From Candidatus Hermodarchaeota archaeon (GTDB taxonomy: Archaea > Asgardarchaeota > Hermodarchaeia > Hermodarchaeales > Hermodarchaeaceae), in the NCBI GenBank assembly GCA_016840065.1, contig JAEOTB010000081.1:1-18262 (forward strand): DNA of 18,262 nucleotides, in the 5' to 3' direction. Of this stretch, positions 1-18,262 are shown piece by piece. Position numbers and translations under genes: made by a program. How positions within the stretch are numbered: position 1 is the first letter of the stretch; each line of letters begins with the position of its first letter. The notes under the pieces were generated by a model, which had not been told where the DNA came from, searched no databases, and saw only the letters and a program-made list of their open reading frames with translations.

Positions 1-1477
1 ACTCCTTAGACGCGCCAGCCATCTCACCAATCCCACCCGCATTATCCGCGATGGGGCCAAAACTATCCATAGCAACATTATTCCCGGTGTGGGTTAGAGC
101 GCCGATACCTATGAGTCCGATGCCGTATAGGACGTAGTCTAGTGTTGCTCCGGTGTAGATGAGGGCGGAGGAGACGAAGGTAGCGGCAATCACTAAGAGT
201 ATCCAGACTGCAGCCTCGTATCCTGCAGATATCCCTGAGAGCATTATCGTGGCTGGTCCTCCGTCGGCTGCGTCGACAATTTCCTTCACTGGTTTGTGAC
301 GGTGACTTGTGAAGTAGTTGGTGATAGGGTTGAAACTTACAGCCAAGCCTACGCCTATCGTGATGAGGATGGCAGGTCTAATGTCTGGTATGGAAAGCCC
401 GCCTATAGTCCATGGTAGAAGACCTGCAAAGGATGTATAGAACCAGGCGAGGATAAATGTCACGATGATGGTGAAGAGGCTAGAAACCTCATAGGACTGG
501 AACATCGCCTTCTCAGCCTTATCGGTCTTCCAAACAGCCACCATAAAGGTACCAATCATGGAAGAGATAACACCAATCGCACGAACGGTAAGCGGGAAAA
601 TGATCCAGAATACATTATTAGTCGCTACGTAAAGAACAAGCCCAAGGATGAGGGCAGAAACAATAGTAACCTCATAACTCTCAAAGATGTCAGCCGCCAT
701 ACCGGCGCAATCTCCTACATTGTCGCCTACTAGGTCTGCTATTACGGCTGCGTTTCTGGGGTCGTCTTCGGGGAGGTCTGCTTCGACTTTGCCGACGAGG
801 TCTGCGCCTACGTCTGCGGCTTTGGTGTAGATTCCGCCGCCGATTCGCATGAAGAGGGCGATGAGGGTTCCTCCGAATCCGAAGCCGAGGAGAGCATCGG
901 GGGCGGCGGTGCCGAAGATGATGAATATCATGGTGCCACCGAGGAGTCCGAGTCCGTCGGTGAGCATTCCTGTGAATGTTCCGCCGTGGTAGGCGATTTT
1001 GAGGGCTTCGCGGTAGGACCTGGCGGAGGCGGAGGCTACTCGGATGTTTGCCTCAATAGCAATCCGCATTCCCCATTGGCCCACGATGAGGGAGAAGGAT
1101 GCGCCTATTACGAAGGCGATGGCGCGGCCGATTGCGACGATGCGCTGGGTCTCCTGGTACGTGTACCCTCCTGCTGTGTGAAAGACCGCGAGGGCTTCGT
1201 GGCTGGGTGGTACGATGTAGACGGAGAAGAAGAGGACAACAGTGAGCAAGCCGATGAAAGGTAGTATAGATTTGAGTTGGCGGCTCAGGTAGGCGTTTGC
1301 GCCCTCCTTGATTGCCTGCCATACTTCTTGCATCTTTTTGGTGCCTTTGTCTGCTCTTAGAACGCTCTTGCGGAGCCAGACCGCGTATATCAGGCTCAGT
1401 ATTGCTGCTATAATCACTGTGCCTATGGCGAACTGTTCAAAGATACCTAAACTGAGGAATGTGTCAAAGAACGTCAT
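1..1477 (-). CDS. hppA: Membrane-bound H+/Na+-translocating pyrophosphatase (V-PPase), 3' end beyond window; probably the divergent subfamily
   Basis: Not in the ORF track because there is no stop in the window. Manual translation from ATG at 1477 gives MTFFDTFLSLGIFEQFAIG...GTKKMQEVWQAIKEGANAYL...LFMRIGGGIYTKAADVGADLVGKVEADLPEDDPRNAAVIADLVGDNVGDCAGMAADIFESYEVT...MDSFGPIADNAGGIGEMAG. These are the signature M-PPase motifs (DVGADLVGKVE, DNVGD, GPIADNAGG). Confidence 0.97.
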   Translation of the reverse strand, partial: MTFFDTFLSLGIFEQFAIGTVIIAAILSLIYAVWLRKSVLRADKGTKKMQEVWQAIKEGANAYLSRQLKSILPFIGLLTVVLFFSVYIVPPSHEALAVFHTAGGYTYQETQRIVAIGRAIAFVIGASFSLIVGQWGMRIAIEANIRVASASARSYREALKIAYHGGTFTGMLTDGLGLLGGTMIFIIFGTAAPDALLGFGFGGTLIALFMRIGGGIYTKAADVGADLVGKVEADLPEDDPRNAAVIADLVGDNVGDCAGMAADIFESYEVTIVSALILGLVLYVATNNVFWIIFPLTVRAIGVISSMIGTFMVAVWKTDKAEKAMFQSYEVSSLFTIIVTFILAWFYTSFAGLLPWTIGGLSIPDIRPAILITIGVGLAVSFNPITNYFTSHRHKPVKEIVDAADGGPATIMLSGISAGYEAAVWILLVIAATFVSSALIYTGATLDYVLYGIGLIGIGALTHTGNNVAMDSFGPIADNAGGIGEMAGASKE

Positions 1478-1530
1478 GTGAATGCCCCATCCGTTGTCAC
1501 AGGATTTTACGCTACTCGTCAAGTTTTTCC

Positions 1531-1543
1531 ATTTAAGTGTTGG
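1531..1543 (-). promoter_or_regulatory. Candidate archaeal BRE/TATA promoter for hppA
   Basis: The minus strand reads CCAACACTTAAAT, about 55 nt upstream of the hppA ATG. It has the same CAAC + T/A-box layout as the candidates at 1608 and 15785. Confidence 0.35.
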
Positions 1544-1607
1544 TAGTGTGCAAACCTTTCAAGAACTATGAGGTACAACTTGTATTTCCCCTGTTTTCGC
1601 AACGAGT

Positions 1608-1622
1608 GCAACGCTTTTGTAG
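1608..1622 (+). promoter_or_regulatory. Candidate archaeal BRE/TATA promoter for the flavoprotein/Fe-S pair
   Basis: GCAACGCTTTTGTAG lies about 50 nt upstream of the TTG start. A GGAGG Shine-Dalgarno site follows at about 1657-1661. Confidence 0.3.
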
Positions 1623-1670
1623 TGCCTCACACATTTTTCCGCCACTAAAAGCATACGGAGGACCCTTGTA

Positions 1671-3128
1671 TTGACCAGTAATGTGGACAAGCTAGTCGCC
1701 GAAGCCTCCAAACTCATAGGCGACAAACACGTCACAACAAACCTTGCATTCCGCCGGAGCTACCTCGCCCGAAGCGTAATGGGCATCCGAGCAGGAATAG
1801 CAGAAGCGATCATAAAGCCGGGCAATGCCGAGGAAGTCCAAGGCATCGTCAAGCTATGCAACGAACTAAAAGTACCCATCAGTCCCTATTCTGGTGGGCT
1901 CAGCGGCGGATACGCCCAACCCCTCCGGGACGAAGGCATAATCCTAGACCTAGTACGCCTAAACAACATAATCGAAGTAGACATCGACAACCGCTACGTA
2001 GTAGTCGAACCAGGCGTCACATCAGGACAAGTCTGGGCTTACTTCCGCAAAGAATATCCAGAATGGGCACCACCAGTACCCGACGGTGCACCACCCCGCG
2101 CCACACTGATAGGTGACGCAGTGGAACGCGGCTTCAGCCTCGTCACCAGCAAATATGGACCACAAGGACGCATGATTAATGGGCTAGAAGTCATACTGCC
2201 CCGCGGCGACAAGATACACACAGGCAGTTGGGCGATGAAAGGCGTCAAGCCCTTCTATCCCTGGGGTCCAGGTCCTGACTTCACCGGCCTATTCCTAGGC
2301 GCCCAAGGTACCATGGGCGTAATCACAAAAGCCGCCATCCGTATCATCCCCCACCCACCCCACATCGACCTAGTTGCTTGGGACTACGACAACCCTGAAG
2401 ACATGACCGATCACACCCTCGCAGTAGTAAAGAAGGAAGTCGGAGTGATGGTGCAGGGCGGCAACTGGTGGCTTGTACCCAGCAGAAAGGATGAGCGCGA
2501 GGTTCCTACGACCCTTGAGGCTTGGCGGAAAGAGAAATACTATATCCCGGCCTGGATGATGAACTTTGAACTCTGGGCTCATACTGAGAAGGAGCTGGAG
2601 AGCCAGCATGACATTATTCAGGAGGAGGCGGATAAGCTCATTAAGCAGGGTAGGAGTATGAAGCCCTGGGAGCTGCACCCTGCCGCTAAAGCTGGTCGTC
2701 TCAAGAAGCCGAACCTGATTGCTGTGCCGTATTCGATGCACCGCGCTGGTTTTGTCTTTATCACTTGGTATCTGCCCTTCGCTGACACCGCTGAGTTTAG
2801 CAATATTTGTGTAGAGACTATGGAGAAGCATGACCTCCCCCCGGTTGTCTGGGTTTCCAGCATCGAGCAGGGGCGCCAGTGCATTGGGATGCCTATTGTC
2901 TGTTTTGATAGTCGTACTGAGGCTGGCTATGAGCAGGCGGAGGCTTGGGACCGTGAGACCACCGAAATCTTCCACAAGAAGGGCTGGCTCAACTATCGTC
3001 CGAACGCCTTTATTCACTGGCCTGCAATGCGCCCGATGATGCCTGAGTATGTGGGTATGTTGAAGGAGCTGAAGGACCTGTGGGATCCAAACAGGATCAT
3101 GCATCCGGGTCGTCTCGATGTCGACTGA
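1671..3128 (+). CDS. FAD-binding oxidoreductase, VAO/PCMH (4-cresol dehydrogenase flavoprotein-like) family
   Basis: 485 aa, TTG start after GGAGG. FAD_binding_4 features: IIKPGNAEEVQGIVKLCNELKVPI, VVVEPGVT, GLEVILPRG, FLGAQGTMGVITK. C-terminal DPNRIMHPGR. The segments VPD...GDAVERG, YPWGPGPD and GWLNYR resemble vanillyl-alcohol oxidase / p-cresol methylhydroxylase. Substrate unknown. Confidence 0.88.
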   Translation: MTSNVDKLVAEASKLIGDKHVTTNLAFRRSYLARSVMGIRAGIAEAIIKPGNAEEVQGIVKLCNELKVPISPYSGGLSGGYAQPLRDEGIILDLVRLNNIIEVDIDNRYVVVEPGVTSGQVWAYFRKEYPEWAPPVPDGAPPRATLIGDAVERGFSLVTSKYGPQGRMINGLEVILPRGDKIHTGSWAMKGVKPFYPWGPGPDFTGLFLGAQGTMGVITKAAIRIIPHPPHIDLVAWDYDNPEDMTDHTLAVVKKEVGVMVQGGNWWLVPSRKDEREVPTTLEAWRKEKYYIPAWMMNFELWAHTEKELESQHDIIQEEADKLIKQGRSMKPWELHPAAKAGRLKKPNLIAVPYSMHRAGFVFITWYLPFADTAEFSNICVETMEKHDLPPVVWVSSIEQGRQCIGMPIVCFDSRTEAGYEQAEAWDRETTEIFHKKGWLNYRPNAFIHWPAMRPMMPEYVGMLKELKDLWDPNRIMHPGRLDVD

Positions 3129-3212
3129 TTCGTACTGGAAAATAGACAAAGTGTAAAAGGAACGATACGATTGGAAATTTGTTAGTTGATGAGAATGATG
3201 GAGGATTTCTGA

Positions 3213-4430
3213 ATGACCGAATCTGATCACAGTAAAACAAAACTTGAAGATTTTCGACTGGAAGTGGCTCGCTGCATCCACTGCAAAGCCTGCTCCCTCT
3301 CCGATGCGGACAACCCCAGTGGAGGCTTTCATCCTGGCTGCCCCGCATGGCATGCCATGGAGTGGGAGGCCTACGGTGGTGGCGCTAAGATGTGGCTTGC
3401 GCGCCAGATCCTTGATGGCCAATACAAGCTGGGCGAGGAAGCCCTGGATATGCTCTACCGTTGTAGCACCTGTGGCAATTGCGAAGCCCAATGTGAGAAC
3501 GAGCTTCCCACAGTTGACATTATTGAGGCGATGCGGGCAGAAGCAGTCAAGGCAGGGCTTGGACCCCTGGATAAGCAGAAGGTGTACTCGAAGGCTGCTG
3601 AGGAAAAACGTAACCCATATAATGAGCCACACGAAGACCGGACAGCGTGGGTTCCTGCCGAGTTTAAGCTCAAGGATAAAGCTGATGTTGTCTACTTTGT
3701 CGGCTGTACTGCAAGCTATCGTTTAAAGGAGCTTGCTGTTTCCACGATGCGGGTTATGCAGAAGCTTGGTACAGATTTGACAGTGAAAGAGGACGAGTAC
3801 TGCTGCGCTTCACCCCTGATTCGGGTGGGTAAAGTGGATACCATCCCCAAATTTGTCAAGCACAATGTTGAGCTCTTCAAGGCAGCAGGAGCCAAGGTTG
3901 TGGTCTCATCGTGCGCGGGGTGTTTCCGCACAATGACAAGAGACTGGCCCAAGTACTACGGGAAACTCCCCTTCGAGGTCAAGCACAGCGTCAACTTTAT
4001 CGCCGAGTTGCTGGAGGCAGGCAAAGCGAAGTTGAAACCCATCAAGGGAATGATTGCAACCTATCATGATCCTTGCCACTATGGTCGTCACATTGGCCAG
4101 TTAATCAAGAGCAAGCGTAAGCGTGCTGAGTGGTTTGAGGTGCCCCGAAAGGTGCTTCGGGCACTTCTCGGTGACAACTTTGTTGAGATGCCGAGGAATC
4201 GGGATCACAGCTGGTGCTGCGGTGCTGGCGGCGGGGCCCGTGCTCAGTTTCCTGACTGGACTATGGATACCTCCATAGAACGAATCAGGGAGGCTGAGGC
4301 CACAGGAGCCAATACCCTCGTTTCTGCATGTCCTTTCTGTGAAACCTCTCTCCAGGCTGCGATTGAGAAGTCTGGGTCGAAGCTGAAACTGGTGGACATT
4401 ATCCAGCTTGTGGAACAAGCGCTCGAGTGA
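3213..4430 (+). CDS. (Fe-S)-binding protein, HdrD/GlcF type (2x 4Fe-4S + 2 CCG domains)
   Basis: 405 aa with GGAGG SD. Ferredoxin motifs CIHCKAC-x15-CP and CSTCGNCEAQC. CCG domain 1: YFVGC...YCCASP...SSCAGC. CCG domain 2: YHDPCH...WCCGAGGG...SACPFC. Confidence 0.93.
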   Translation: MTESDHSKTKLEDFRLEVARCIHCKACSLSDADNPSGGFHPGCPAWHAMEWEAYGGGAKMWLARQILDGQYKLGEEALDMLYRCSTCGNCEAQCENELPTVDIIEAMRAEAVKAGLGPLDKQKVYSKAAEEKRNPYNEPHEDRTAWVPAEFKLKDKADVVYFVGCTASYRLKELAVSTMRVMQKLGTDLTVKEDEYCCASPLIRVGKVDTIPKFVKHNVELFKAAGAKVVVSSCAGCFRTMTRDWPKYYGKLPFEVKHSVNFIAELLEAGKAKLKPIKGMIATYHDPCHYGRHIGQLIKSKRKRAEWFEVPRKVLRALLGDNFVEMPRNRDHSWCCGAGGGARAQFPDWTMDTSIERIREAEATGANTLVSACPFCETSLQAAIEKSGSKLKLVDIIQLVEQALE

Positions 4431-4474
4431 TGTCATAACAAGCCCAGCTAGAGCTTGTGAATCACATTAGCTGT

Positions 4475-4837
4475 CTAGTCGGTGTCTAGTGAAGCTACCG
4501 CGCTGAGCAGTGCTGCTATTCCGACTGGTTTAACCATGAATAGGTCAGCACCAGCATCTAGGGACGTTGTTTTCACTGTCTCGTCAGCGCTGATGAAGAT
4601 AATCAAGCATTTGGGGAGTGCCGTTTTCAACTCCTTAGTTGCAGTTAGTCCATCCATAACAGGCATCCGGTGGTCCATGATGACAATACTAGGTTTTGAT
4701 TCGAGCTTGTGAATCTTCTCTAGAGCCTCTGCACCATGGAAGGCTACACCCACAACTTTGTGGCCTCCCTGTTCTAGAATTGCTCCATATATCTGATGGA
4801 GGAGCGCCTCGTCCTCCACGATGAAGACAGTTGCTAT
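4475..4837 (-). CDS. Single-domain (CheY-like) response regulator
   Basis: REC motifs: (IA)TVFIVEDE acidic pocket, IVIMDHRMPVMDG phospho-Asp, FISAD, GADLFMVKP. The ORF-track GTG at 4819 cuts off strand beta-1. The likely start is ATA at 4837 (see findings). Confidence 0.9.
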   Translation of the reverse strand: MATVFIVEDEALLHQIYGAILEQGGHKVVGVAFHGAEALEKIHKLESKPSIVIMDHRMPVMDGLTATKELKTALPKCLIIFISADETVKTTSLDAGADLFMVKPVGIAALLSAVASLDTD

Positions 4838-7800
4838 TCTGTATCCCCCCTTGGTAATAGAACAACAAAACTGGCTCCTTGAGTGTGGTCGCCAGGCACT
4901 CGGTCCTCAACCCAAATTCTCCCTCGATATCGGGTAACAATGCGCTGAACTAGGGTGAGTCCAATTCCGCGCCCACGTACTCCCCGCTCACCTCTCTCCT
5001 TGGAGGACAAACGGGCAAAGATTTGCTCTTTGTCACCATCTGAAATTCCAGGTCCCCAATCCTGAATCTGTATCTTTAGGAATTCCTCTTCCTCTTCTAC
5101 CAGGACATCAACGTGAACCTCTTCTCGCCGATCATATCGCATAGCGTTATGTAATAGATTGAAGAACATATCATAGAGGAATTCATCAACTTGGGCATAG
5201 TACTTCCCTGGGGAGATGGGGGTGTGGATGTTTAGTTTCCGTTGTGGATAACTATCCCGTATAGCATCGGCTGCAGCGAAAAGCGGCTCTGAAATGTCAG
5301 ACTGCGCTCTTTTTAGTGGAGCAGTATCTATGAGGGCGAATTTCTTCACCTTTGAGATAAGGTCGGAGCTCCGAACTAATTGTGCTAATGCCGTCTGCAC
5401 AAACTCTCTTACTTGTATTGGAAGATTCGATTCTAAGAGCACCAACTCTAGAAGTGAAAGGATGGCTTGGTGAATGTTTGTTAAATCATGGACCATCAGG
5501 TCATTGAAGAACTCGGCTCTGGCTCTTGATTCAAACGCCACTTCTTCAGCCTCTTTACGCTCAGTAATATCAATGAGTACTCCTTCAATTGCGGTCACTT
5601 GGTAGTCAGGATTGTAGAGTCCTCGCATGTTATCATGCAGCCAACGGATGGTTCCGTCCTTTCTGATGATGCGATACTCCAGCTCTCCAATGGCACCAGG
5701 CACTTTACCCATCCGATCGAAATCCTTCTGCAACCGAGCCCAATCATCAGGATAGATTACTTGGTCCCATTTAATCCGTCCTGATACAAAGTCCTCCTCA
5801 GTGTACCCTGTAATGGACTGTACAGCCCCATGAAAGAATTCAATTGAATAATCAGGTTGTGACCTGTACGCTATTCCTAGAAAGTTTTCAACAAAGGAAC
5901 GGTACTTGGCTTCTGATTCCCGAAGCTGTTCCTCTGTTTCTCTTCTGTCGGTGATGTCTGTTGAATTTGAGACAAGAGCAACTGCTCGACCAGATTCGAG
6001 GATTGGTGAGACTCGAACCTCAAACACCTGGACCGTTCCATCTTCTTGCTGGTTCTCGCTATAGAAGGTTTCAGGTTTGCCCGTTACCCAGACTCGTTTA
6101 TAGCAGTCAGATGCAGTTTGCTGGAAATCTGGCGAGATGAAATCAAGGATTGATTTACCCAATACTTCTCTCATTGTAAGATTTACCAGAATCCGGTTAA
6201 TAAACAGAATCCGGAACTTCTGGTCCAAAAGGATGATTTGGTCAGGGGAGTTCTCAGTGACAGACCGCAATCTTTCCTCCGAATCTAGGAGGGCCTGCTC
6301 CATCTGTCTACGCTCTGTGATGTCTTCCCCAGAGCTCAAGGAACCAAGTATGTTCCCTTCCTCATCACGAAAGATGACAGTGTGCCATGCTATGAGCCTC
6401 TCTTCACCCTTGCTAGTAAGAATTGGGTTCTCATGATACTCCACAGGGTCAACTTCACCCTTCAGCTGGGCATACACCTGTTTCACATCCTTGTGGAACC
6501 GTTCAGGGAGAAAGTTATCGAACCAGTTTTTACCCATAGCTTCTTCTTCATAGACTCCAAGCAGCTCGCATCCCTTCCGGTTAATGAGGATTATTTCCTC
6601 TTGAGTGTCCAGCGCTACAAGGATAACTCCTGCCACATCAAGATACTGCTGCGCACGGTCCCGTTCTCGTCGTAGGGCTGTATCGATTTGTTTACGCTCC
6701 GTAATGTCAAGGAGAACACCCTCTACTTGGGTAACAATTCCTGTTTCATCGCTGATGTTTCGTATTCTTTCATGCATCCAACGAATGTGCCCCTCTCGAT
6801 GAATAATTCGATACTCGCGCCTTGTAGATGCTCCTGGCACCGTCCCCATTTCCTTCCACCCTACTTCGATCTGCCCCCAGTCATCAGGGTGAATCATCTG
6901 CATCCAATTTACGCGACCTGACACAAAATCGTCTTCAGTATAACCTGTGATGGCCTCGGCAGCGCCCTGAAAGAACAAAGGTGCACCATTGATATCTGCA
7001 CGATACGCGATACCAGGAAAGTTCTCAACAAAAGACCTGTACTTCCTTTCAGACTCCTGTAGTGCCTCTTGTGCCAGTTTGAGTTCAGTAATATCGTAAA
7101 AAGTAGTGTAGACTTGGTAGGGTTGTTCGTCGCCAGTTCTGAATTGGGGAACAGCACCGATTCTAATCCACCGGGTAATATCTTCAGCTGGGTTGTAGAC
7201 ACCCATTATCACGTCGTGAACTTCTTCGCCAGTCTTCAACGCAACCATCGCGGGGTGGGATTCGCCTGGGAAGTCTGAACCGTCTTCTTTAATGGATCTC
7301 CATTGAGGATCAACTGAGGTTCTGCCCTGCATCTGGTCTAGAGATAATCCTAGAATGCGTTCAGCAGCAGGGTTTGCAGAGGTGATTTCACCACTGGCAT
7401 TCTGGTAGACAACGCCCTGAGCCATAGTTTCGAAGAGGGTTCGGTACGTTTTCTCGTTCTCTCGCAGCGCCTGCCCTATTCTTGCTCGGGTGATGGCCGT
7501 GCCAATTTGAGTAGCAATCATCTCAAGGGCTGTGCGTCCGTGAGCTGAAATCACATCTTTGGTATGGGATGCAACGTTTAAGCAGGCAATAACTCTGTTC
7601 TCATGGCTAACAGGAATCATTGCTAAAACCTTCAGCCCCTCACTTCTATCAATTTGTTCACTGGGAACGGGGAATTCCTCGTAATTGAGGTAAACGGGAT
7701 CTCCCTTCATCACTAACTGATTATTCGGTGAACCAGCTTCGTAGTAACCTACATTCTTTACAAAGGATGGAGAAAGCCCCTTATGAATTAATAGTTCAAG

Positions 7801-10800
7801 GTCGCCAGTAACTTCGTTTACAAGGTAAACGCCGCCGCTATCCATCCCCGAAACCTCTATAGTGGCCTCCAAACAGAGCTTTAACACTGTATGCAAATCA
7901 GAGGTTGCGGATAAAGCCAAACCCAGGTCACGCTGAATACGGATTAACTCCTCAGCTTCCTTCCTCTCACTGATGTCCACGAGAGTAACCTGTACCGCAG
8001 GCTCTCCTTTGAACTCGATAATCTGGGAGGCAATATCCACCCAAATGGCACTCCTATCCTTGTGGATCAATCGCAACTCCCATCGTGGTGGAACATCTTC
8101 TCCCCTTAGCCGAGAAGTCAACCGTTCAAAGGTGTCCCTCCTTTCCTCAATATGAATGAGTTCCTGTATTTCTTGAGGTGACATGCTAGGCGCTTCATCA
8201 ACAGAACGCCCAATGAGTTGAGCAGCCGCCTCGTTGACAAAGGATATCCGAAGAGGATTTGCCTGCAGGATAATAATGCCAAGAAGTGATTGTTCCACTA
8301 GCGTTCTGTACTTGTCTTCCGATTCTAGCAAAGCTTGCTGGGCTCGTTTCTGTTCGGAAATTTCATAAAAAACAGAGACAAAGTATCCGGGACGGGGACA
8401 ATACGCAGATACGGTATACCATCGATCCAGAGGAGCAGCGAACTGTTCAAAATAAGCAGGCTTCCCAGTGAGAGCTACATCCCCATAAACACCAATCAAA
8501 TCAGCTGGATAATCTTCAATGCCAGCGAGAAGCTCTGTGACTCGTTTCCCAATGACATCCTCCCGCTTTAGACCCGTTTGTTCTTCAAAGGCTTTGTTTA
8601 TTTCTAAGAAGATGTAATCGATTGGCTGTCCATCTTCGTCGACCACAACTTTATGAAAAGCGAAGCCCTGAGACATGTTCTCGAAAAGCGATCTGTATTT
8701 CTCCTCTGATTCCTGCAACGCAATCTCTGTTTGCCTTCGTTGAGTGATGTCCTGGATGATCCCTTCATAAAACAAGGCCTCTCCTTCCTTATCGAGAAAT
8801 ACCTGGGCTGTGTTATTCACCCAAACAACCCTGCCGTCAAAGCAGCGCATCTGCACCAGAAAATCTCGCACTACCCCTTTCTCTTCCATAAGCCTCTGCC
8901 ACTGCTGACGATCAGCTTGGTCTACATATAACTCGGTCGCATTTACTTTTTGAAGGGATTCTTGATTAGGATAAGCTAATAGCTGCGCCATTGCAGGATT
9001 AGCGTCAACAATCTGCCCATCTGGCATAGAACGGTAGAGTCCAACAGGGATTCGGTCGAATAGACCCTGATATTGTGCTTCTGATTCGTGAAGCGCCTCC
9101 TCCGTCTGCTTCTGTTCAGTGATATCTACTAAGGTGACTTGTAGCGCTGGCTTTCCCATGAACTCGATTCTTACGCTAGAGACCTCAACCCAGCGAATTG
9201 TACCGTCTTTTCTGAAGAAGCGGAAAGTTATACTCGGTGGGACTGGTTCTCCCTCGAGGGTCCTCTGAGCGTGCCCAAATGCCTCTTCTCGGTCCTCTGA
9301 GTGGACAGTTTCCCATGTTTCTTCTGCAGTCATGGCAAGTAGTTTATCCGCCGAGTACCCAATCATTTCAACGAAACGATTGTTAACAAAGACGAAGGTC
9401 CTCTCCTGAAGTATCATTATCCCGAACGGAGAATGGTCCAAGATTAGCTGGTAGGCTTCCTCTGCCTGCTTTCGCTCAGTAATATCAACGGAATGGAACT
9501 GGGTTGCTGGAGTGCCCTCGTATTCGATTTGTGTACTATAAACCTCTAACCAGCGAAAAGTTCCATCCTTTCTTATCAATCGATACTCATAACGTTCAGG
9601 TAAAGGTTTGCCAGCTAGACGGTCTTTATGGCGTTGAATTGCTGCCTCTTGGTCCTCAGGGAGGACCGTTGCTAGCATTTCTTCAGGAGTGAGGGAGAGC
9701 AACTCTTCAACGCTTCTCCCATAACTTTCAGCAGCAGCCGAGTTTGCGAAGACAAACCTATCTCCCTGCCGGATTGTTACACCAAGAAGGCTGCCATCAA
9801 CAACAGCTCTATACAAACGTTCACTGGTTGCTCTTGCTGCCTCTGCGCGTCTTTGTGAGGTAACATCTACCCATGTGGAGATATAGAATACAAGCTCATC
9901 CTCAATCATAACTGGTGTGGAGGTAATTTGGACCCTACGTATGTCCCCACTCTTTGTTCGGACTTCTGATTCTCTCCCACTGAATCCAACTTCCATAACT
10001 GCGGTAAATGCTTGGACCATATCCACATCTGGGTCCATCTGCCACCAGGGGAAAGGAGGTTTTCCTCCGACAATATCAGCGGCAGTGAAGCCCGATAGCT
10101 CTTCGAATGCTGCGTTGACATAACGAATTGAAGTATCAGGATTTACTACAAGAATTGGGTTAGGTGAATGCTCAAGGATAGTAGAGGTGAAGGTTTCACT
10201 TTCACGAAGTGCCTGTTCTGCCTCCTTTTTTTCTGTGATATCAATTAGAGCAACTTGAGTAGCGGGTTTACCATGGTAACTTACGATTGAAGGGAATCCT
10301 TGGATCCAGATTACTGTTCCATCCCTGCGAAGGAAGCGGTATTCCACACTCACAGGTGAAGGCTTCCCCGCCAATCGTTCTTGTAAACGTCTCAAGTAAT
10401 CCTCCCGATCCTCTGGATGCAGCATTTCTAATACTTCTACAGGAGATTTGGCGAGTACCTCCTCAACAGAGTATCCGGAATGCTCTGCGGCAACCGAATT
10501 GACAAAGACGATGCGATCTTCTTGGATGATAATTAGTCCCTGGGGAGTCCGCTCTACTATCGCCTTGTAAGCCTCCTCCACGTACTCCTCTTCTGTAACA
10601 TCTTGCCCTATGCAAATGATTTCCCGTAATGCTCCTTCCTCGTAAGTAATGCGTGCCTGTTTCCATTCAATGATACGCCGCTCCCCCATCTTGGTGGTCA
10701 CTTCACACACGAACTTCCTTATAGTATCTGAAGCTATGAAGGCTCGAAGCTCTTGTCGGCAAGCCTTCTGATGTTCAAGGGGGATCATTCGTGCAATGAA

Positions 10801-10992
10801 AGATTTACGGACTAGCTCCTCTTCGGTATAACCGGTAAGCTCCTCGCAGCCTTTGCTGAATAATTTAATTCGACCTCTCTTATCGAGTGCTATGATGAGG
10901 AGGTTGTGCATTTCAGCTATTGCATCAAATCGTAGTGCTGCTAGACGCTCTGCTGACCTAAGCTTAGGGGTGTAAGATCTCGTTGAAGGCAT
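4834..10992 (-). CDS. Giant cytoplasmic PAS/GAF sensor histidine kinase (13 PAS + 1 GAF + HisKA + HATPase)
   Basis: 2052 aa. Thirteen ~125-aa units end in D[IV][TS]/EIS followed by coiled-coil 'ALxESE' linkers. A GAF domain (SGGVYLVN...AMIPVSHENRVIACLNVAS) sits after unit 8. H-box LMVHDLTN, N-box NLLHNAMRY, G1 IQDWGPGI, G2 GRGIGLTLV. No obvious TM segment. GGTGG SD upstream. Confidence 0.96.
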   Translation of the reverse strand: MPSTRSYTPKLRSAERLAALRFDAIAEMHNLLIIALDKRGRIKLFSKGCEELTGYTEEELVRKSFIARMIPLEHQKACRQELRAFIASDTIRKFVCEVTTKMGERRIIEWKQARITYEEGALREIICIGQDVTEEEYVEEAYKAIVERTPQGLIIIQEDRIVFVNSVAAEHSGYSVEEVLAKSPVEVLEMLHPEDREDYLRRLQERLAGKPSPVSVEYRFLRRDGTVIWIQGFPSIVSYHGKPATQVALIDITEKKEAEQALRESETFTSTILEHSPNPILVVNPDTSIRYVNAAFEELSGFTAADIVGGKPPFPWWQMDPDVDMVQAFTAVMEVGFSGRESEVRTKSGDIRRVQITSTPVMIEDELVFYISTWVDVTSQRRAEAARATSERLYRAVVDGSLLGVTIRQGDRFVFANSAAAESYGRSVEELLSLTPEEMLATVLPEDQEAAIQRHKDRLAGKPLPERYEYRLIRKDGTFRWLEVYSTQIEYEGTPATQFHSVDITERKQAEEAYQLILDHSPFGIMILQERTFVFVNNRFVEMIGYSADKLLAMTAEETWETVHSEDREEAFGHAQRTLEGEPVPPSITFRFFRKDGTIRWVEVSSVRIEFMGKPALQVTLVDITEQKQTEEALHESEAQYQGLFDRIPVGLYRSMPDGQIVDANPAMAQLLAYPNQESLQKVNATELYVDQADRQQWQRLMEEKGVVRDFLVQMRCFDGRVVWVNNTAQVFLDKEGEALFYEGIIQDITQRRQTEIALQESEEKYRSLFENMSQGFAFHKVVVDEDGQPIDYIFLEINKAFEEQTGLKREDVIGKRVTELLAGIEDYPADLIGVYGDVALTGKPAYFEQFAAPLDRWYTVSAYCPRPGYFVSVFYEISEQKRAQQALLESEDKYRTLVEQSLLGIIILQANPLRISFVNEAAAQLIGRSVDEAPSMSPQEIQELIHIEERRDTFERLTSRLRGEDVPPRWELRLIHKDRSAIWVDIASQIIEFKGEPAVQVTLVDISERKEAEELIRIQRDLGLALSATSDLHTVLKLCLEATIEVSGMDSGGVYLVNEVTGDLELLIHKGLSPSFVKNVGYYEAGSPNNQLVMKGDPVYLNYEEFPVPSEQIDRSEGLKVLAMIPVSHENRVIACLNVASHTKDVISAHGRTALEMIATQIGTAITRARIGQALRENEKTYRTLFETMAQGVVYQNASGEITSANPAAERILGLSLDQMQGRTSVDPQWRSIKEDGSDFPGESHPAMVALKTGEEVHDVIMGVYNPAEDITRWIRIGAVPQFRTGDEQPYQVYTTFYDITELKLAQEALQESERKYRSFVENFPGIAYRADINGAPLFFQGAAEAITGYTEDDFVSGRVNWMQMIHPDDWGQIEVGWKEMGTVPGASTRREYRIIHREGHIRWMHERIRNISDETGIVTQVEGVLLDITERKQIDTALRRERDRAQQYLDVAGVILVALDTQEEIILINRKGCELLGVYEEEAMGKNWFDNFLPERFHKDVKQVYAQLKGEVDPVEYHENPILTSKGEERLIAWHTVIFRDEEGNILGSLSSGEDITERRQMEQALLDSEERLRSVTENSPDQIILLDQKFRILFINRILVNLTMREVLGKSILDFISPDFQQTASDCYKRVWVTGKPETFYSENQQEDGTVQVFEVRVSPILESGRAVALVSNSTDITDRRETEEQLRESEAKYRSFVENFLGIAYRSQPDYSIEFFHGAVQSITGYTEEDFVSGRIKWDQVIYPDDWARLQKDFDRMGKVPGAIGELEYRIIRKDGTIRWLHDNMRGLYNPDYQVTAIEGVLIDITERKEAEEVAFESRARAEFFNDLMVHDLTNIHQAILSLLELVLLESNLPIQVREFVQTALAQLVRSSDLISKVKKFALIDTAPLKRAQSDISEPLFAAADAIRDSYPQRKLNIHTPISPGKYYAQVDEFLYDMFFNLLHNAMRYDRREEVHVDVLVEEEEEFLKIQIQDWGPGISDGDKEQIFARLSSKERGERGVRGRGIGLTLVQRIVTRYRGRIWVEDRVPGDHTQGASFVVLLPRGDTE

Positions 10993-11194
10993 GGCATTCC
11001 CACCAAGTTATAATTTGATTACCTCGACTGGAGTATGAAGTCATTCCCCAGTCCAAGAATCCTATAATCATTGGATGAAGGCGCTTTTTTGTGTTTCCTG
11101 TCATCTGGAAAACGGGTGGCTGTGGATTTTTAGGGAGGATATGGAACATTAGCCACTAGCATTGAAGACTCGTCAAGTGAAGTAGTGAATACCA

Positions 11195-12346
11195 ATGGCA
11201 CGAACCTACAAGATTCAAGTTTTGCCCGGCGATGGAATTGGTATCGAAACCGTCGCTGAAGCAGTGAAGGTGCTCAAAGTGGCTGAAGAGGAAACGAGAG
11301 GACTCAATCTGACATTTCACGAGTTTTCCTGTGGAGGGAAACACTTTCTAGAAACAGGTGAAGAGTGGTCAGCAGAAGCGAAGGCGTTTTCCCAGAACGA
11401 AGCTGATGCAATTCTGTTAGGAGCAGTAGGTTGGGAACGTGAACCTGGGGAGCCTATCAGAAGGTCTGACGGTCAGATAGCTGGAGCTGACGTTGTTCTT
11501 GGAACCCGCTCCGAACTGGATCTTTATGCGAATGTTCGTCCTGTGAAGCTTTACTCGGGTGTGCCTACACCTTTAGCAGACTTGGTACCCAGCGATGTTG
11601 ATTTTGTCATTGTCCGAGAAAACACTGAAGGTCTCTATGTGCCTATTCGTGGAACCCTCAAACGTGGGAGAGATGCGGAATCTGGTGTAGATGTACGGGT
11701 GATAACCCGCCGAGGGGCGGGAAGAGTGAGTCGATTCGCCTTTAAACTCGCCAAGAAGAGAAAGCATGGAGCTCCAACCGATGGGCAGAAGCGGGTTACC
11801 TGCGTAGATAAAAGCAATGTTCTAGACGGATGCAGGTTGTTTCGTAAGGTGTTTCGGGAGGTGGCAAATGATTTCCCAAGGATTGATACTGACTTTGCCT
11901 ATGTGGACGCATGGACAATGTGGTGTCTGCGTCGCCCTTCCTACTATGATGTTGTGGTCACATCAAATATGTTTGGAGATATTATATCCGATTTAGGGGC
12001 AGCCATCCAAGGCGGGATGGGAGTCGCAGCGGGGGCCAATATCGGTGACGGTCATGCCATGTTTGAACCAATTCATGGATCCGCCCCCCGCCACGCAGGT
12101 AAACAACGGGCAAATCCCATTGCAGCCATTCTTGCTGGGAAAATGCTCTTAGAATGGCTAGGGGACAAACACAAGGACCGCCGCTGCCACAGAGCTGCGG
12201 AGAAGATTGAATTCGCCGTCAAGGCGGTGTTGAGTGCTGGGCTGACACGTACATATGATCTGTGTGTAGGTCCCTTTGCTAAGGTTGAGCCATCCACGAC
12301 AGGGATGGTTGGGAGTGCGATTACAGAACTTATTCGTGCACAATAG
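11195..12346 (+). CDS. Isocitrate/isopropylmalate (beta-decarboxylating) dehydrogenase family protein, LeuB/homoisocitrate-DH-like
   Basis: 383 aa. Motifs LPGDGIG, LLGAVG, LDLYANVRP, IVRENTEGLY, VDKSNVL, NMFGDIISDL, FEPIHGSAP, ANPIA. Adjacent to leuC/leuD-like genes. Exact substrate not determinable. Confidence 0.93.
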   Translation: MARTYKIQVLPGDGIGIETVAEAVKVLKVAEEETRGLNLTFHEFSCGGKHFLETGEEWSAEAKAFSQNEADAILLGAVGWEREPGEPIRRSDGQIAGADVVLGTRSELDLYANVRPVKLYSGVPTPLADLVPSDVDFVIVRENTEGLYVPIRGTLKRGRDAESGVDVRVITRRGAGRVSRFAFKLAKKRKHGAPTDGQKRVTCVDKSNVLDGCRLFRKVFREVANDFPRIDTDFAYVDAWTMWCLRRPSYYDVVVTSNMFGDIISDLGAAIQGGMGVAAGANIGDGHAMFEPIHGSAPRHAGKQRANPIAAILAGKMLLEWLGDKHKDRRCHRAAEKIEFAVKAVLSAGLTRTYDLCVGPFAKVEPSTTGMVGSAITELIRAQ

Positions 12347-12362
12347 CAGAATGGTGAAGATT

Positions 12363-13622
12363 ATGGGGCAGACAATCGCAGAGAAAATCCTAGCCGCACA
12401 CGCGGATGTTTCACGAGTAGAGCCAGGGGAAATTATCGAGGCATCAGTTGATGTGGCAATGAGCCATGAGATGCTGGGAACTCGAGTGATTCCCCATGTG
12501 GAGGCTGCAGAGATTGAGCATCTTTGGGATTCTGATAGGGTTGTTATTATGTTGGATCATTGGGCGCCAGCACCCACCGTTGAAGCAGCGATGATACATC
12601 AGCGTGTTCGACGATTCGTTGAGCGTTATGGTGTGACACACTTCTACGATGTAGGAACAGGAATCTGCCATCAGGTACTTGCGGATTACGGGCATCTCCG
12701 GCCTGGCGAGCTACTTGTGGGAACCGACTCCCACACAACGACTGGTGGTGCTCTAGGTGTATTCGCAACGGGGATTGGCGCAACTGATATGGCTGTAGTC
12801 TTAGCTACTGGACGTCTTTGGTTCCGTGTACCCGAATCCATTAGGATTACCCTTTCTGGTAAGCTTCGTGATAAGGTGATGGGGAAAGATGTAATTCTAC
12901 ACATCCTAGGGGAACTTGGTGCTGGTGGAGCTGCCTACAAGGTTCTGGAATTTCAGGGAGATGGTATTGAACATCTAAGCATTGCCTCCCGAATGACTAT
13001 TACTAATATGAGCGTTGAAGCTGATGCCAAAGCTGCAATAATGCCTGCAGACCAGAAAGTCGAAACCTATGTACAGGCAAGAACAGAGATCCCATTCAAA
13101 CCAGCCAAGCCGGATTCAGACGCCTCATACACTCAGACACTTCAGTATGATGTCTCTAAGCTGGTTCCGCAGGTCGCGACCCCCTCATCACCTACTCAGG
13201 TAGTGCCAGTATCAGAGATTGAGGATGTGCCTATTGATCAGGCGTTCCTTGGTTCCTGTACGAATGGTCGAATTGAAGATATACGAATGGCAGCACGAAT
13301 CATTAATGGCAAGCGCGTAGCCAAGTCTGTCAGGTTCCTTGTAATACCCGCAAGCAGAAATGTCTATCAAAAGGCGTTACGGGAGGGGTTACTCGAGATT
13401 CTCCTCACCGCAGGTGCAGTTATTGGCCCACCCACCTGTGGGCCTTGCTTTGGTGGTCATTGCGGTTTACTCGCAGATGGAGAAGTGTGCATCAGCACCT
13501 CAAATAGGAATTTTAGTGGACGTATGGGCAGCCCTGACGCTGAGATATACTTAGCTTCACCTGCTACAGTCGCTGCAAGTGCTATTACTGGGAAAATTAC
13601 TGACCCCAGAAAAGATGTGTAA
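12363..13622 (+). CDS. leuC: 3-isopropylmalate dehydratase / homoaconitase large subunit (LeuC/HacA, archaeal type 2)
   Basis: ATG at 12363 follows a GGTGA SD, giving MGQTIAEKILA (419 aa). Motifs LDH, GICHQV, GTDSHTTT, AFLGSCTNGR, PTCGPCFGGH, STSNRNFSGRMG, YLASPATVAASA. The ORF-track start at 12276 overlaps the upstream gene and is too early. The leuC vs hacA assignment is uncertain. Confidence 0.93.
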   Translation: MGQTIAEKILAAHADVSRVEPGEIIEASVDVAMSHEMLGTRVIPHVEAAEIEHLWDSDRVVIMLDHWAPAPTVEAAMIHQRVRRFVERYGVTHFYDVGTGICHQVLADYGHLRPGELLVGTDSHTTTGGALGVFATGIGATDMAVVLATGRLWFRVPESIRITLSGKLRDKVMGKDVILHILGELGAGGAAYKVLEFQGDGIEHLSIASRMTITNMSVEADAKAAIMPADQKVETYVQARTEIPFKPAKPDSDASYTQTLQYDVSKLVPQVATPSSPTQVVPVSEIEDVPIDQAFLGSCTNGRIEDIRMAARIINGKRVAKSVRFLVIPASRNVYQKALREGLLEILLTAGAVIGPPTCGPCFGGHCGLLADGEVCISTSNRNFSGRMGSPDAEIYLASPATVAASAITGKITDPRKDV

Positions 13623-13629
13623 CACGAAA

Positions 13630-14184
13630 ATGCCAAGAAGAGCGAAAGGAAAACGTAAAGCCTCTGAAACTCCCCGAATTCCTCCAGTTAAGGGTCGGGC
13701 ATGGAGGTTCGGTGACAACATCAGCACAGATGACATAATTTCAGGAGCCCACCTTACCAGCCCCAATCTTGACGAAATTGCTCCATTCACGTTTGAGACA
13801 ATACGGTCTGATTTTGCCAAGGGAGTACAGCCAAACGATTTTATCGTGGGTGGTCACAGCTTTGGCATTGGCTCTAGCCGAGAGTCAGCCCCAGGTGTTC
13901 TTCGGGTGCTCGGGATTGGGGCGGTGCTTGCCGCTTCCTTTGCCCGCATCTTCTTCCGTAACGCTTTCAACCTGGGTCTTCCCGCCATCGAAGTACCTGC
14001 TCTATCTAGTGACCCCAATGTCATTCAAGAAGCGGATGAACTTACGCTCCAGCTTGAGGAAGGTCTACTCCACAATCATCGAACAAAACAAACTATTCAA
14101 ATAACCAAAATTCCCCCCTTCCTAATCGATTACCTCCTGGTAGGAGGCGCAATACCCCTCCTTAAACAAAAACTTGGTCGTTGA
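13630..14184 (+). CDS. leuD: 3-isopropylmalate dehydratase / homoaconitase small subunit (LeuD/HacB)
   Basis: Motifs GRAWRFGDNISTDDII, GHSFGIGSSRESA, AASFARIFFRNAFNLGLP. The start is taken as ATG 13630, just after the leuC stop. ATG 13615 is an in-frame alternative. Confidence 0.92.
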   Translation: MPRRAKGKRKASETPRIPPVKGRAWRFGDNISTDDIISGAHLTSPNLDEIAPFTFETIRSDFAKGVQPNDFIVGGHSFGIGSSRESAPGVLRVLGIGAVLAASFARIFFRNAFNLGLPAIEVPALSSDPNVIQEADELTLQLEEGLLHNHRTKQTIQITKIPPFLIDYLLVGGAIPLLKQKLGR

Positions 14185-14188
14185 AACA

Positions 14189-14878
14189 ATGTGGTTTGTG
14201 CTGTATTCCATATTATTCTGGGTCTTCGCCTGTGCCTTCATATTAATGAGAACCTATGAGGAGGACCCTCCACAGAGTCCTAAAACAAGATCGAGGGCTG
14301 TATCGCAAATCATCAAACCAATCCCTGCAGGGTTGGCAGCCCTCTTTGTGTTTGTAATGCGTCCAAGCCCCTCGCTTTTCTATTTAGTAATGGTAGTGGG
14401 GCTCACTTTCTGCCTTCTAGGTGATATCGGCATGGAAATTGGACTACTACCTGGGCTAGGACTTTTCATGATAGGCCACATTTCTTTCATTACAGCCTTT
14501 CTAAGTCAGAGCCTGTCACTCGGCATCACCCCTGTTGTACACGTTCCCTTGATTGGCTTCACTATCTTTGCCCTCGTCTATTTCATACTGCTTGTGAGAT
14601 ATTTGCTACCAGGCTTGGGGAAATTTAGGGTACCAGTTTTGATCTATGCTCTGGTGATATCAGCGATGTTGGTGGCATCATTCCTTCTGTGGCTGACATC
14701 AGGAACACCCAATGGAATACTTGTTACCTTTGGTGCTACAATCTTTGTTATCTCAGACTCCCTCATAGGCATTCGAGAATTCCATCACAAATTCTCACAG
14801 CCAACAATCAAGATTCTAGGAACCTATTACTTGGCGATTTTCCTCCTTTCCCTGAATGTCTTGGTCTACCTGTTCTAG
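14189..14878 (+). CDS. YhhN/TMEM86 family membrane protein (lysoplasmalogenase-like)
   Basis: Multi-TM protein with KPIP, LTFCLLGDI, GLGLFMIGHISF, PVLIYALVISAM, GATIFVISDSLIG and TYYLA, the pattern typical of YhhN. ATG at 14189 lies 4 nt after the leuD stop. TTG 14174 is an alternative start. Confidence 0.85.
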   Translation: MWFVLYSILFWVFACAFILMRTYEEDPPQSPKTRSRAVSQIIKPIPAGLAALFVFVMRPSPSLFYLVMVVGLTFCLLGDIGMEIGLLPGLGLFMIGHISFITAFLSQSLSLGITPVVHVPLIGFTIFALVYFILLVRYLLPGLGKFRVPVLIYALVISAMLVASFLLWLTSGTPNGILVTFGATIFVISDSLIGIREFHHKFSQPTIKILGTYYLAIFLLSLNVLVYLF

Positions 14879-14960
14879 ACGGGATTTTCCTCGTTTGATA
14901 ATTAGATTTAATTGGATATGGACTGAACCTAATCTGCCTGAAAAGGAGCGTCGATGAATC

Positions 14961-15740
14961 TTGGTAGATCCTATGACTCTGTTAATGGCTCTTGGTTGCG
15001 GTATACTCATTGGCATTATCTCCCTCAGTGGATTGTTAACGCTCAGTGCTGACATTAACCGTGTTCGGAGCATTGCAAAGTTCTTGGTTGCATTGGCAGC
15101 GGGAACGATGGTGGGAGGGGCTGCCTTCCATCTTCTTCCAGAGGCGGTGGAGGAACTCGGAGGATTTACGCTCACCATTACTCTATCCTTTCTATCGGGT
15201 ATAATCGTCTCCTATTTACTTGAGGCGGTGTTAGAGTGGCACCACTGCAATCAAATCGGAGGATGTGAAGAACCATCTCACCGTCACACCATTGGTGCAA
15301 TGAATTTCTATGGCGATAGCGTACACAACTTCATCGATGGCCTGGTTATTGCCGCAAGTTTCCTAGCAGGCCCTCTAATAGGCTTCAGTGTTGTCCTCGC
15401 AGTGGCACTCCATGAGATACCTCAGGAGTTCGGAGATTTCGGAGTTTTAATCCAAGCAGGATATTCGCGTCGACGAGCCCTTATCTACAACTTCATTTCA
15501 GCATTAATGGCAATCGTGGGTATCTGCACAGTCTTTCTATTGAGTAACTGGATAGTTGGCCTAGCAGAATTCATCCCTCTTCTTCTTCCCTTTGCGGCTG
15601 GCAACTTCATATATGTGAGCTTGACAGATTTAATGCCAGAACTCCACAAGGAGCGGAGGACCAAGCACACACTCGTACAGTTTCTTGTTATGCTATTGGG
15701 TATCACCCTAATGGCATCGTTGCTCTTCCTCCCTCTATAG
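14961..15740 (+). CDS. ZIP family zinc/divalent metal transporter
   Basis: 259 aa, hydrophobic. LAAGTMVGGAAFHLLPEA; His-rich loop WHHC...HRH; TM4 GDSVHNFIDG; TM5 VALHEIPQEFGDF; AAGNFIYVSLTDLMPEL. Start is TTG 14961 or ATG 14973. Confidence 0.94.
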   Translation: MVDPMTLLMALGCGILIGIISLSGLLTLSADINRVRSIAKFLVALAAGTMVGGAAFHLLPEAVEELGGFTLTITLSFLSGIIVSYLLEAVLEWHHCNQIGGCEEPSHRHTIGAMNFYGDSVHNFIDGLVIAASFLAGPLIGFSVVLAVALHEIPQEFGDFGVLIQAGYSRRRALIYNFISALMAIVGICTVFLLSNWIVGLAEFIPLLLPFAAGNFIYVSLTDLMPELHKERRTKHTLVQFLVMLLGITLMASLLFLPL

Positions 15741-15784
15741 GCTTGAGTTAAAGACAAAGTTCGTATCTGATTCCCTAATCTTGA

Positions 15785-15797
15785 GCAACTTTTATTA
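15785..15797 (+). promoter_or_regulatory. Candidate archaeal BRE/TATA promoter for the V4R gene
   Basis: GCAACTTTTATTA lies about 55 nt upstream of the start. It is bracketed by the inverted repeat TTGAGC (15781) / GCTCAA (15823). Confidence 0.4.
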
Positions 15798-15849
15798 CTG
15801 CGATATGTAAGGTATATACAGGGCTCAATGAAAGACTCAGGTGATAATA

Positions 15850-16389: not shown

Positions 16390-16395
16390 CCTTCT

Positions 16396-16428
16396 AACCT
16401 GTCTTCCATTACTTGGCGAGATCAGGTT
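16396..16428. terminator. Imperfect hairpin between the convergent V4R and uvrC stops
   Basis: AACCTG-TCT-TCCA-ttact-TGG-cg-AGA-t-CAGGTT fills almost the entire 39-nt convergent gap. Confidence 0.35.
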
Positions 16429-18261: not shown

Positions 18262-18262
18262 A

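Follow-up and report, generated by a model that had tools for sequence, protein, structure and literature searches.

Strand-skew flips at silent positions of genes in a Hermodarchaeota archaeon as possible marks of DNA break sites

The window analysed here is a stretch of 18,262 nucleotides from the uncultured Asgard archaeon Candidatus Hermodarchaeota archaeon (assembly GCA_016840065.1, contig JAEOTB010000081.1, positions 1 to 18,262, forward strand). It begins with two divergent genes, one encoding a membrane H+/Na+ pyrophosphatase (hppA) and the other a GlcD-like FAD-binding oxidase, followed by genes for a PAS kinase, leuB/leuC-like proteins and uvrC. Within the first two genes, silent codon positions switch abruptly from almost all A/C to almost all G/T. 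The features are as follows.

1-127: terminal 127-mer shared exactly with the start of another contig of the assembly, C122, which carries the rest of hppA (803 aa when joined); an assembly-graph branch that contains the first flip.
2-1522, minus strand: hppA, first 507 codons; the gene runs off the contig (PF03030, E 1e-133).
75-95: sharp A/C to G/T flip (plus strand) at hppA codon about 480, in the conserved motif TGN/NVAMDSFGPIADNAGG (step 1.40, null SD 0.25).
96-480, plus strand: G/T block, which is coding-strand A/C for hppA codons about 350-479; it fades towards 482, where a gradual G/T to A/C return occurs.
482-720, plus strand: A/C block, which is coding-strand G/T for hppA codons about 273-345.
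715-735: sharp A/C to G/T flip at hppA codon about 273, in the conserved motif GDNVGDCAGM/AADIFESY (step 1.30).
736-1522, plus strand: G/T block, which is coding-strand A/C for hppA codons 1-272 and includes a run of 42 A/C-ending codons.
1523-1670: divergent intergenic region, with a G/T to A/C boundary at about 1688 (step -1.10).
1671-3128, plus strand: FAD-binding oxidase gene, 485 codons (PF01565).
1671-2430, plus strand: A/C block (codons 1 to about 253), which includes a run of 35 A/C-ending codons.
2430-2460: A/C to G/T flip at codons about 253-262, on the fully conserved motif VGVMVQGGNWWLVPS; it is more gradual than the hppA flips (step 0.75).
2461-3128, plus strand: G/T block to the end of the gene.
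15841-16389, plus strand: small ORF with no Pfam match whose second half is an A/C block (z 2.4-3.0), a weaker island of the same kind.

The block-wise switching reported in the original prediction was confirmed. Run lengths matching synonymous shuffles would have refuted it; each gene was compared with shuffled versions of itself. The 35 consecutive A/C-ending codons of the FAD oxidase gene compare with at most 22 in the shuffles, and the run of 42 in hppA with at most 26. In 2577-2663, 26 of 29 codons end in G/T and none in A. The cusum-range z was 9.3 for hppA and 12.8 for the FAD oxidase gene, and the autocorrelation z was 15 and 16, respectively. The neighbouring PAS kinase, leuB/leuC-like and uvrC genes were not blocky (z below about 2). 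On the plus strand the switch points from A/C to G/T were placed at about 86, at about 725 and, more gradually, at about 2430-2450, and those from G/T to A/C at about 482, about 1688 (the divergent promoter) and about 3116. Both genes do start with about 750-800 nt of coding-strand A/C. Genome-wide, 39 of 2,268 ORFs had z above 6 and 16 had z above 10. In the extreme cases, as in ATPase A (contig C36, 2644-4419), 235 codons end almost only in A/C and the next 350 or so shift to mostly, then almost only, G/T endings. We found no paper describing such mosaics.

We next wanted to determine what kind of bias this is. At fourfold sites the purine fraction was constant (0.43-0.45 in A/C, neutral and G/T blocks), so that the shift consists only of transitions. 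Intergenic DNA follows its flanks (r 0.35) and Leu first positions are polarised as well. The pattern is shared with other species of the same genus from separate assemblies (G001 and G003), which have the same polarity and approximate flip positions in the FAD oxidase gene, ATPase A, the amidohydrolase and hppA, whereas the sister genus mostly does not share it. It is thus a heritable DNA-strand bias, not codon selection or an assembly artefact. Sharp flips ran almost only from A/C to G/T (12 against 1 of the reverse), a direction that reads the same on both strands, and only flips of this direction sit between extended domains. No 4-6-mer at the flips survived correction for multiple testing, and GGCC was not among the enriched words.

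The interpretation given in the original prediction was partly supported. Its reading of the blocks as amino/keto strand skew, rather than GC content or ordinary codon optimality, holds, and a local strand-asymmetric mutational process is the best class of explanation. The alternative that it offered, selection on mRNA folding, was not supported, since A/C and G/T blocks deviated from their shuffles in opposite or null directions. A role for the divergent promoter, about which the blocks had been called mirror-symmetric, was not supported either: there was no trend along genes and no gene-start or promoter effect genome-wide, and the symmetry arises because two A/C to G/T flips happen to lie about 800 nt on either side of the promoter. 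The proposed deamination of an exposed strand predicts the opposite polarity if that strand is a resected 3' tail (PMC6786661). The coincidence of switch points with recombination or assembly junctions, which would have counted against the original prediction, was found in part. The flip at about 86 lies in the 127-nt assembly-graph branch, but the 34 contig junctions joined by 127-mer overlaps had a mean step of 0.00 and only the hppA junction was strong. The suggestion of a second layer of information within coding DNA was not supported; the pattern looks like a footprint, not a code.

What is new here is that the flips coincide with intein insertion sites. At 15 empty sites in this genome (sites at which relatives carry inteins), the step was positive in 14 with 40-codon windows and in 15 with 80-codon windows, with a mean of about 0.5 against a null of 0 ± 0.25 (p 8e-8 and 2e-8). 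When the 3 sites that had suggested the idea were left out, 11 of 12 were positive (p 6e-6). Eleven of the 15 were in the top 10% of their own gene, and in 7 of 15 the largest step of the gene lay within 7 codons of the site. At occupied sites in relatives the step was positive in 14 of 14 (mean 0.49), while intein interiors were unpolarised (average 0.04). MCM in this genome showed the same pattern. There were exceptions. One intein site (contig C98, 11045) showed no step, and the helicase intein of this genome, present in every relative whose copy was examined, had unpolarised flanks, which fits the absence of empty targets but is a single case. Sites known only from inteins in distant families gave a weak result (3 of 5 positive), and 17 occupied sites in other Asgard families showed no step, so the bias is specific to this lineage. 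A search with intein splicing domains for mini-inteins yielded no new host sites.

For hppA and the FAD oxidase gene the link to inteins is by analogy. Their flips lie on fully conserved motifs of the kind inteins favour, have the A/C to G/T polarity and have tails of a few hundred bases. However, no intein or other insertion was found at these flips in 19 genomes of the class, among the best matches (about 150 of some 380) from a sample of 301 genomes of the phylum, or among longer homologues. The H+-PPase homologues of roughly 1,000 aa carry C-terminal extensions, not insertions, and the best H+-PPase matches from the phylum sample are continuous. No nuclease is known for these genes, and an exact-protein lookup of the FAD oxidase in other assemblies returned nothing on record. 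The FAD flip is not shared by the sister genus, unlike most intein-site steps, and only 2 of the 12 strongest flips in the genome map to known intein sites.

The explanation that we favour, with moderate confidence, is that the blocks are a natural, heritable mutational footprint of repeated DNA break repair. In this view, in this archaeal class one DNA strand locally accumulates C>T and A>G changes at every free position (G>A and T>C as seen on the other strand), and the polarity is set by discrete points, such that on each side of a point the strand running 5' to 3' away from it becomes G/T-rich, with tails of about 0.3-1 kb. As intein insertion sites are places cut by homing endonucleases, each flip may be read as a site of recurrent double-strand breakage repaired by homologous recombination. 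After 5'-3' resection only one strand on each side would be resynthesised, outward from the break, and in this lineage that strand would be biased towards G and T, either through G.T mispairs made during fill-in or through damage to nascent single strands. The three hppA flips, at codons about 273, 480 and 700, and the FAD flip, at codon about 256, would then be such sites, cut by a nuclease not yet identified, and the boundary at about 1688 would be where the tails of two neighbouring footprints meet. The assembly-graph branch at the first flip implies alternative haplotypes. Our analysis demonstrates the skew, its restriction to transitions, the direction of the flips and their link to intein sites, whereas breakage as the cause, the nascent-strand mechanism and the identity of the hppA and FAD flips as break sites are inferences. 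The nascent-strand mechanism in particular is a deduction, as the polarity is opposite to the well-documented deamination of resected 3' tails. Repair gene content revealed no clear lineage-specific defect and was not decisive: NucS was present in 18 of 19 genomes, a MutS-like gene in 16 of 19 and MGMT in 17 of 19. Intein sites and flips might also share a hidden cause, such as extreme local conservation that favours recombination junctions.

Among other explanations, a local strand-asymmetric process unrelated to breakage is possible but unlikely. Small origin-like sites of DNA synthesis (abortive or recombination-independent initiation, nick-primed strand displacement) might prefer very conserved sequence, with intein sites being only one subset. 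The polarity is that of a replication origin, most strong flips have no known intein, and the hppA flips sit on all three top-conserved motifs. However, within intein host genes the maximum step sits on the intein site itself rather than on other conserved motifs, the FAD oxidase gene has five other fully conserved windows with no flip, and no shared sequence motif was found at flips. Less likely still are recombination mosaics, in which alleles of opposite polarity circulate in the population and genes are patchworks joined at conserved motifs. Same-genus species do carry opposite polarity in the same ATPase A segment (alignment columns about 455-500), the first flip lies in the assembly branch, and polarised islands are enriched near contig ends. 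But random joins would give both flip directions equally, contig junctions in general show no step, and the idea does not explain how polarised alleles arise.

A transcription-associated asymmetry, or selection on mRNA (codon optimality, folding) in highly expressed genes, is very unlikely and already largely refuted here. Many affected genes are probably abundant (ATPase, thermosome, ACS/CODH, AOR and hppA, for example), coding-strand A/C blocks outnumber G/T blocks 3:1, and the FAD A/C block folds less than its shuffles. Against this, a transcription-associated bias would follow gene orientation from the transcription start with a G+T-rich coding strand, whereas the metagene profile was flat, the 5' parts of the two genes are A/C-rich on the coding strand and the flips are internal. 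Codon choice following tRNA logic would be confined to coding positions, whereas intergenic DNA and Leu first positions are polarised, fourfold sites keep their purine:pyrimidine ratio and opposite choices occur within one gene. Folding effects were inconsistent, the sister genus, with the same genes, mostly lacks the blocks, and Topo VI A and PolD are also affected. An assembly or consensus artefact of a mixed population is the least likely: although this is a MAG with 5% contamination, two PolD DP2 copies and islands near contig ends, reading frames and protein identity are intact through the blocks, other species from other assemblies show the same polarity at the same places (some mid-contig), junctions carry no step, and an artefact could not confine itself to synonymous sites.

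We compared the pattern with known systems. In yeast, strand-coordinated 'single-switch' mutation clusters form around double-strand breaks through bidirectional resection (PMC6786661), and nascent single strands are mutagenised in break-induced replication (PMC9262586). There, as in our reading of the flips, the strand bias switches at the break, tracts are hundreds of bases to kilobases long, and the bias is caused by one strand being single-stranded or resynthesised during homologous repair. In our case a switch was observed at intein (homing endonuclease) sites elsewhere in the genome, with no nuclease site known at the flips of the window. The yeast clusters are acute, arising from a single event, and those of the resection type have C>T on the top strand left of the break and G>A right of it. 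Here the polarity is the reverse, both transitions are involved, and the signal is an evolutionary equilibrium that saturates synonymous sites. Replication-associated skew, with a G/T-rich leading strand and a jump in keto skew at the origin, has the same sign of flip and involves the same pair of transitions. Instead of one to a few switches per chromosome with domains of 100 kb or more, however, we found 40-84 flips with tails of about 100-250 codons, lying inside genes and at intein sites and varying between species of one genus. In vertebrate mitochondrial DNA, third positions are nearly saturated with A/C or G/T through C>T plus A>G on one strand, with proteins kept intact by selection, but this is a single replicon-wide gradient tied to one replication mode, whereas here the asymmetry forms local mirror-image islands in a chromosome. 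Co-conversion tracts flanking homing introns and inteins are likewise centred on the homing site, extend a few hundred bases into the flanks and persist at empty sites, but known tracts are donor-derived sequence with no strand polarity. Intein sites and homing have been described (PMC2814812, PMC10643990); none of the intein papers found in our literature search uses the term 'strand asymmetry'.

A wider reading, which we offer only tentatively, is that the A/C to G/T flips are a genome-wide evolutionary record of recurrent site-specific DNA breaks. Flips with no known intein, such as the three in hppA at its three catalytic motifs and the one in the FAD oxidase gene, would then mark targets of unrecognised homing-type nucleases or 'ghost' intein sites, and the reversed polarity would show that in this archaeal class the strand resynthesised during recombinational repair, not the resected tail, is the mutagenic one. 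In practical terms, the islands distort codon-usage, dS and HGT analyses and sit where MAG assemblies tend to break. If the break-repair reading is right, sequence composition alone can locate break and homing hot spots in organisms that cannot be grown. It would reveal past intein activity at sites that are now empty, and it would also expose a lineage-specific property of archaeal recombinational repair in Asgard archaea, the closest known relatives of eukaryotes.

The analysed DNA is the start of contig C64 of a 2.59-Mb, 131-contig metagenome-assembled genome (G000) that is 84% complete. The following features were identified in it.

1-127: terminal 127-mer shared with contig C122 (G000:C122:1-127)
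2-1522, minus strand: first 507 codons of hppA, encoding a membrane pyrophosphatase
1671-3128, plus strand: gene for a FAD-binding oxidase (FAD)
4834-10992, minus strand: gene for a 2,052-aa sensor histidine kinase with many PAS domains and a GAF domain, not polarised
15841-16389: a weaker A/C block

We first asked whether the third codon positions of hppA and FAD were ordered to a greater extent than could be expected by chance. Third positions of both genes formed long A/C or G/T runs, of 42 and 35 codons respectively, while synonymous shuffles within the gene reached at most 26 and 22. The cusum-range z was 9.3 and 12.8, and the autocorrelation z was 15 and 16. Apart from the weaker A/C block at 15841-16389, the other genes of the window were ordinary. 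The observation of the original prediction was therefore confirmed, and its coordinates and counts were correct.

To determine how common this organization is we called 2,268 ORFs on the whole genome. Thirty-nine of them showed z above 6 and 16 showed z above 10. In the gene of ATPase A (C36:2644-4419), 235 codons end almost only in A/C and the next 350 or so shift to mostly, then almost only, G/T endings. The islands were 1-5 kb long, rare and enriched near contig ends, since 4.3% of ORFs within 500 nt of an end had z above 6, compared with 1.1% of those beyond 10 kb. The affected genes were mostly conserved core genes, including those for ATPase A and B, PolD DP2, MCM, thermosome, ACS/CODH subunits, AOR, PPDK, a NuoD-like subunit, Topo VI A, STT3 and an FwdA-like amidohydrolase. 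At C78:112293-117720, two long ORFs with no Pfam match lie in a 6-kb, almost purely A/C (plus strand) island, which ends about 400 nt before the contig end and is followed by a G/T-rich STT3 gene on C102; the ORF calls in this island may be on the wrong strand.

Since such blocks could reflect a property of the DNA strand, of codons or of mRNA, we classified blocks from non-fourfold neighbours only and then examined the fourfold sites. The purine fraction at these sites was 0.43, 0.45 and 0.45 in A/C, neutral and G/T blocks, while the A+C fraction was 0.81, 0.55 and 0.30, so only transitions are involved. Leu switched between CTA/CTC and TTG, and codon positions 1 and 2 shifted by about 0.1. 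Intergenic DNA shared the polarity of its flanks (r = 0.35), and no trend along genes was detected genome-wide. mRNA folding energies deviated inconsistently. This is a property of the DNA strand, not of codons or mRNA. The interpretation in the original prediction, which had offered a local strand-asymmetric mutational process or selection on mRNA folding, was supported in part, in favour of the former.

The polarity was also observed in related genomes. G001 and G003, which belong to the same genus but are different species (83-92% aa identity) from separate assemblies, showed the same polarity in the same parts of FAD, ATPase A, the amidohydrolase and hppA, with flips at roughly the same codons but of different strengths. 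In one ATPase A segment G001 and G002, another genome of the class, had the opposite polarity to G000 and G003. The sister genus was largely unpolarised in these genes. The state is therefore natural, lineage-specific and fast-evolving; an artefact could not confine itself to synonymous sites or recur in other species.

An A/C to G/T flip reads the same on both strands. Among the sharpest change points, 12 were A/C to G/T and 1 was the reverse. At looser thresholds the ratio was 84:57, and only the A/C to G/T flips were situated between extended domains. No sequence motif marked the flips, and GGCC was not among the enriched words.

The position of some flips suggested a link to inteins. In the sister genus ATPase A carries a LAGLIDADG intein at Walker A, which is where the G000 gene flips. 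In nearly every sister-genus genome PolD DP2 has a roughly 1.6-kb in-frame insert at about aa 900, and the intein-free DP2 of G000 flips at codon 897. The G000 bin holds two full-length PolD DP2 genes (C93:49-3495 and C36:11247-14696) that are 88% identical, one of them on a 4-kb contig, and this is either a second related population in the bin (contamination 5%) or a paralogue. Both flip at the intein site, and the short-contig copy flips much more strongly. To test the link we took all LAGLIDADG hits of the 19 genomes of the class, mapped their extein flanks onto G000 and measured the step at each empty site, defined as the mean polarity of 40 or 80 third positions left of the site minus that of the same number to the right. 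Of 15 sites, 14 (40 positions) and 15 (80 positions) were positive, with a mean of 0.52 and 0.46 against a null of 0 ± 0.25 and 0.20 (Mann–Whitney p of 8e-8 and 2e-8). When the three sites that had prompted the idea were left out, 11 of 12 were positive (p 6e-6). Eleven of the 15 sites were in the top 10% of their own gene, and in 7 of 15 the largest step of the gene was located within 7 codons of the site.

Similar results were obtained at occupied sites. In the relatives that carry the inteins, N-extein minus C-extein was positive at 14 of 14 sites (mean 0.49, p 2e-6), while intein interiors averaged 0.04. The MCM gene of G000 spans two contigs with a 103-nt overlap, at the start of C61 (1-2950) and the end of C10 (131046-131885). 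It carries one intein at Walker A and has an empty second site at Walker B, where six sister-genus genomes carry an intein. Its N-extein is strongly A/C, its intein near neutral, and its C-extein strongly G/T beyond the empty Walker B site; the assembly breaks about 130 nt from that site. The footprint reached about 100-200 codons on each side. However, 17 occupied sites in other Asgard families showed no step (mean 0.08, p 0.34), so in our reading two ingredients would be needed, a break site, which is universal, and a lineage-specific bias. None of the papers on inteins that were searched uses the term 'strand asymmetry', and further literature searches found no description of such mosaics.

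While the skew, its direction and its coincidence with intein sites were observed directly, the mechanism is our inference. Homing endonucleases make double-strand breaks. After 5′-3′ resection the top strand is resynthesised to the right of the break and the bottom strand to the left. If the resynthesised strand gains G and T, the result would be exactly an A/C to G/T flip with decaying tails and an unpolarised insert. Such a gain could come from dGTP opposite T and dTTP opposite G, or from damage while the nascent strand is single-stranded, as in migrating-bubble synthesis (PMC9262586). Deamination of the resected 3′ tails, which is the documented cause of single-switch clusters in yeast, gives C's mutated on the left and G's on the right (PMC6786661), which is the opposite polarity. 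Repair gene content gave no decisive clue. A MutS-like gene (about 740 aa) and an O6-alkylguanine transferase gene lie next to each other in most genomes of the class (for example G003:C203:2864-4248) but neither was found in G000 or G002, which could be a real loss or an unassembled locus.

We then returned to hppA and FAD. Contigs C64 and C122 overlap by exactly 127 nt in opposite orientation, so hppA (803 aa) is split by an assembly-graph branch; forty contig-end pairs in this genome share terminal 127-mers and could be joined. The joined hppA has three A/C to G/T flips, at codons about 273, 480 and 700, inside its three most conserved motifs: GDNVGDCAGM, NNVAMDSFGPIADNAGG and GGAWDNAKKYIE. 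The 127-mer branch, at the flip near codon 480, implies alternative haplotypes in the sample. The FAD flip lies on the fully conserved VGVMVQGGNWW motif, but five other equally conserved windows have no flip. No intein or insertion was found at any of these positions. The FAD flip is absent from the sister genus, and the hppA flips are only partly shared by G001. Several short LAGLIDADG ORFs of about 200-260 aa in the class genomes (for example G004:C23:185834-186007 and G002:C187:2409-2666) look free-standing rather than intein-borne, and are candidate nucleases for flips that have no intein. The mirror symmetry about the divergent promoter noted in the original prediction is simply the meeting of tails from the flips at about 725 and about 2440. 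For this window the break-site reading is therefore an analogy, which we consider about as likely to be right as wrong.

Taken together, the observation is very strong and represents a natural strand-asymmetric transition footprint with origin-like polarity. What is new is its statistically firm anchor at intein homing sites, which points to recombinational repair of recurrent breaks as the cause.
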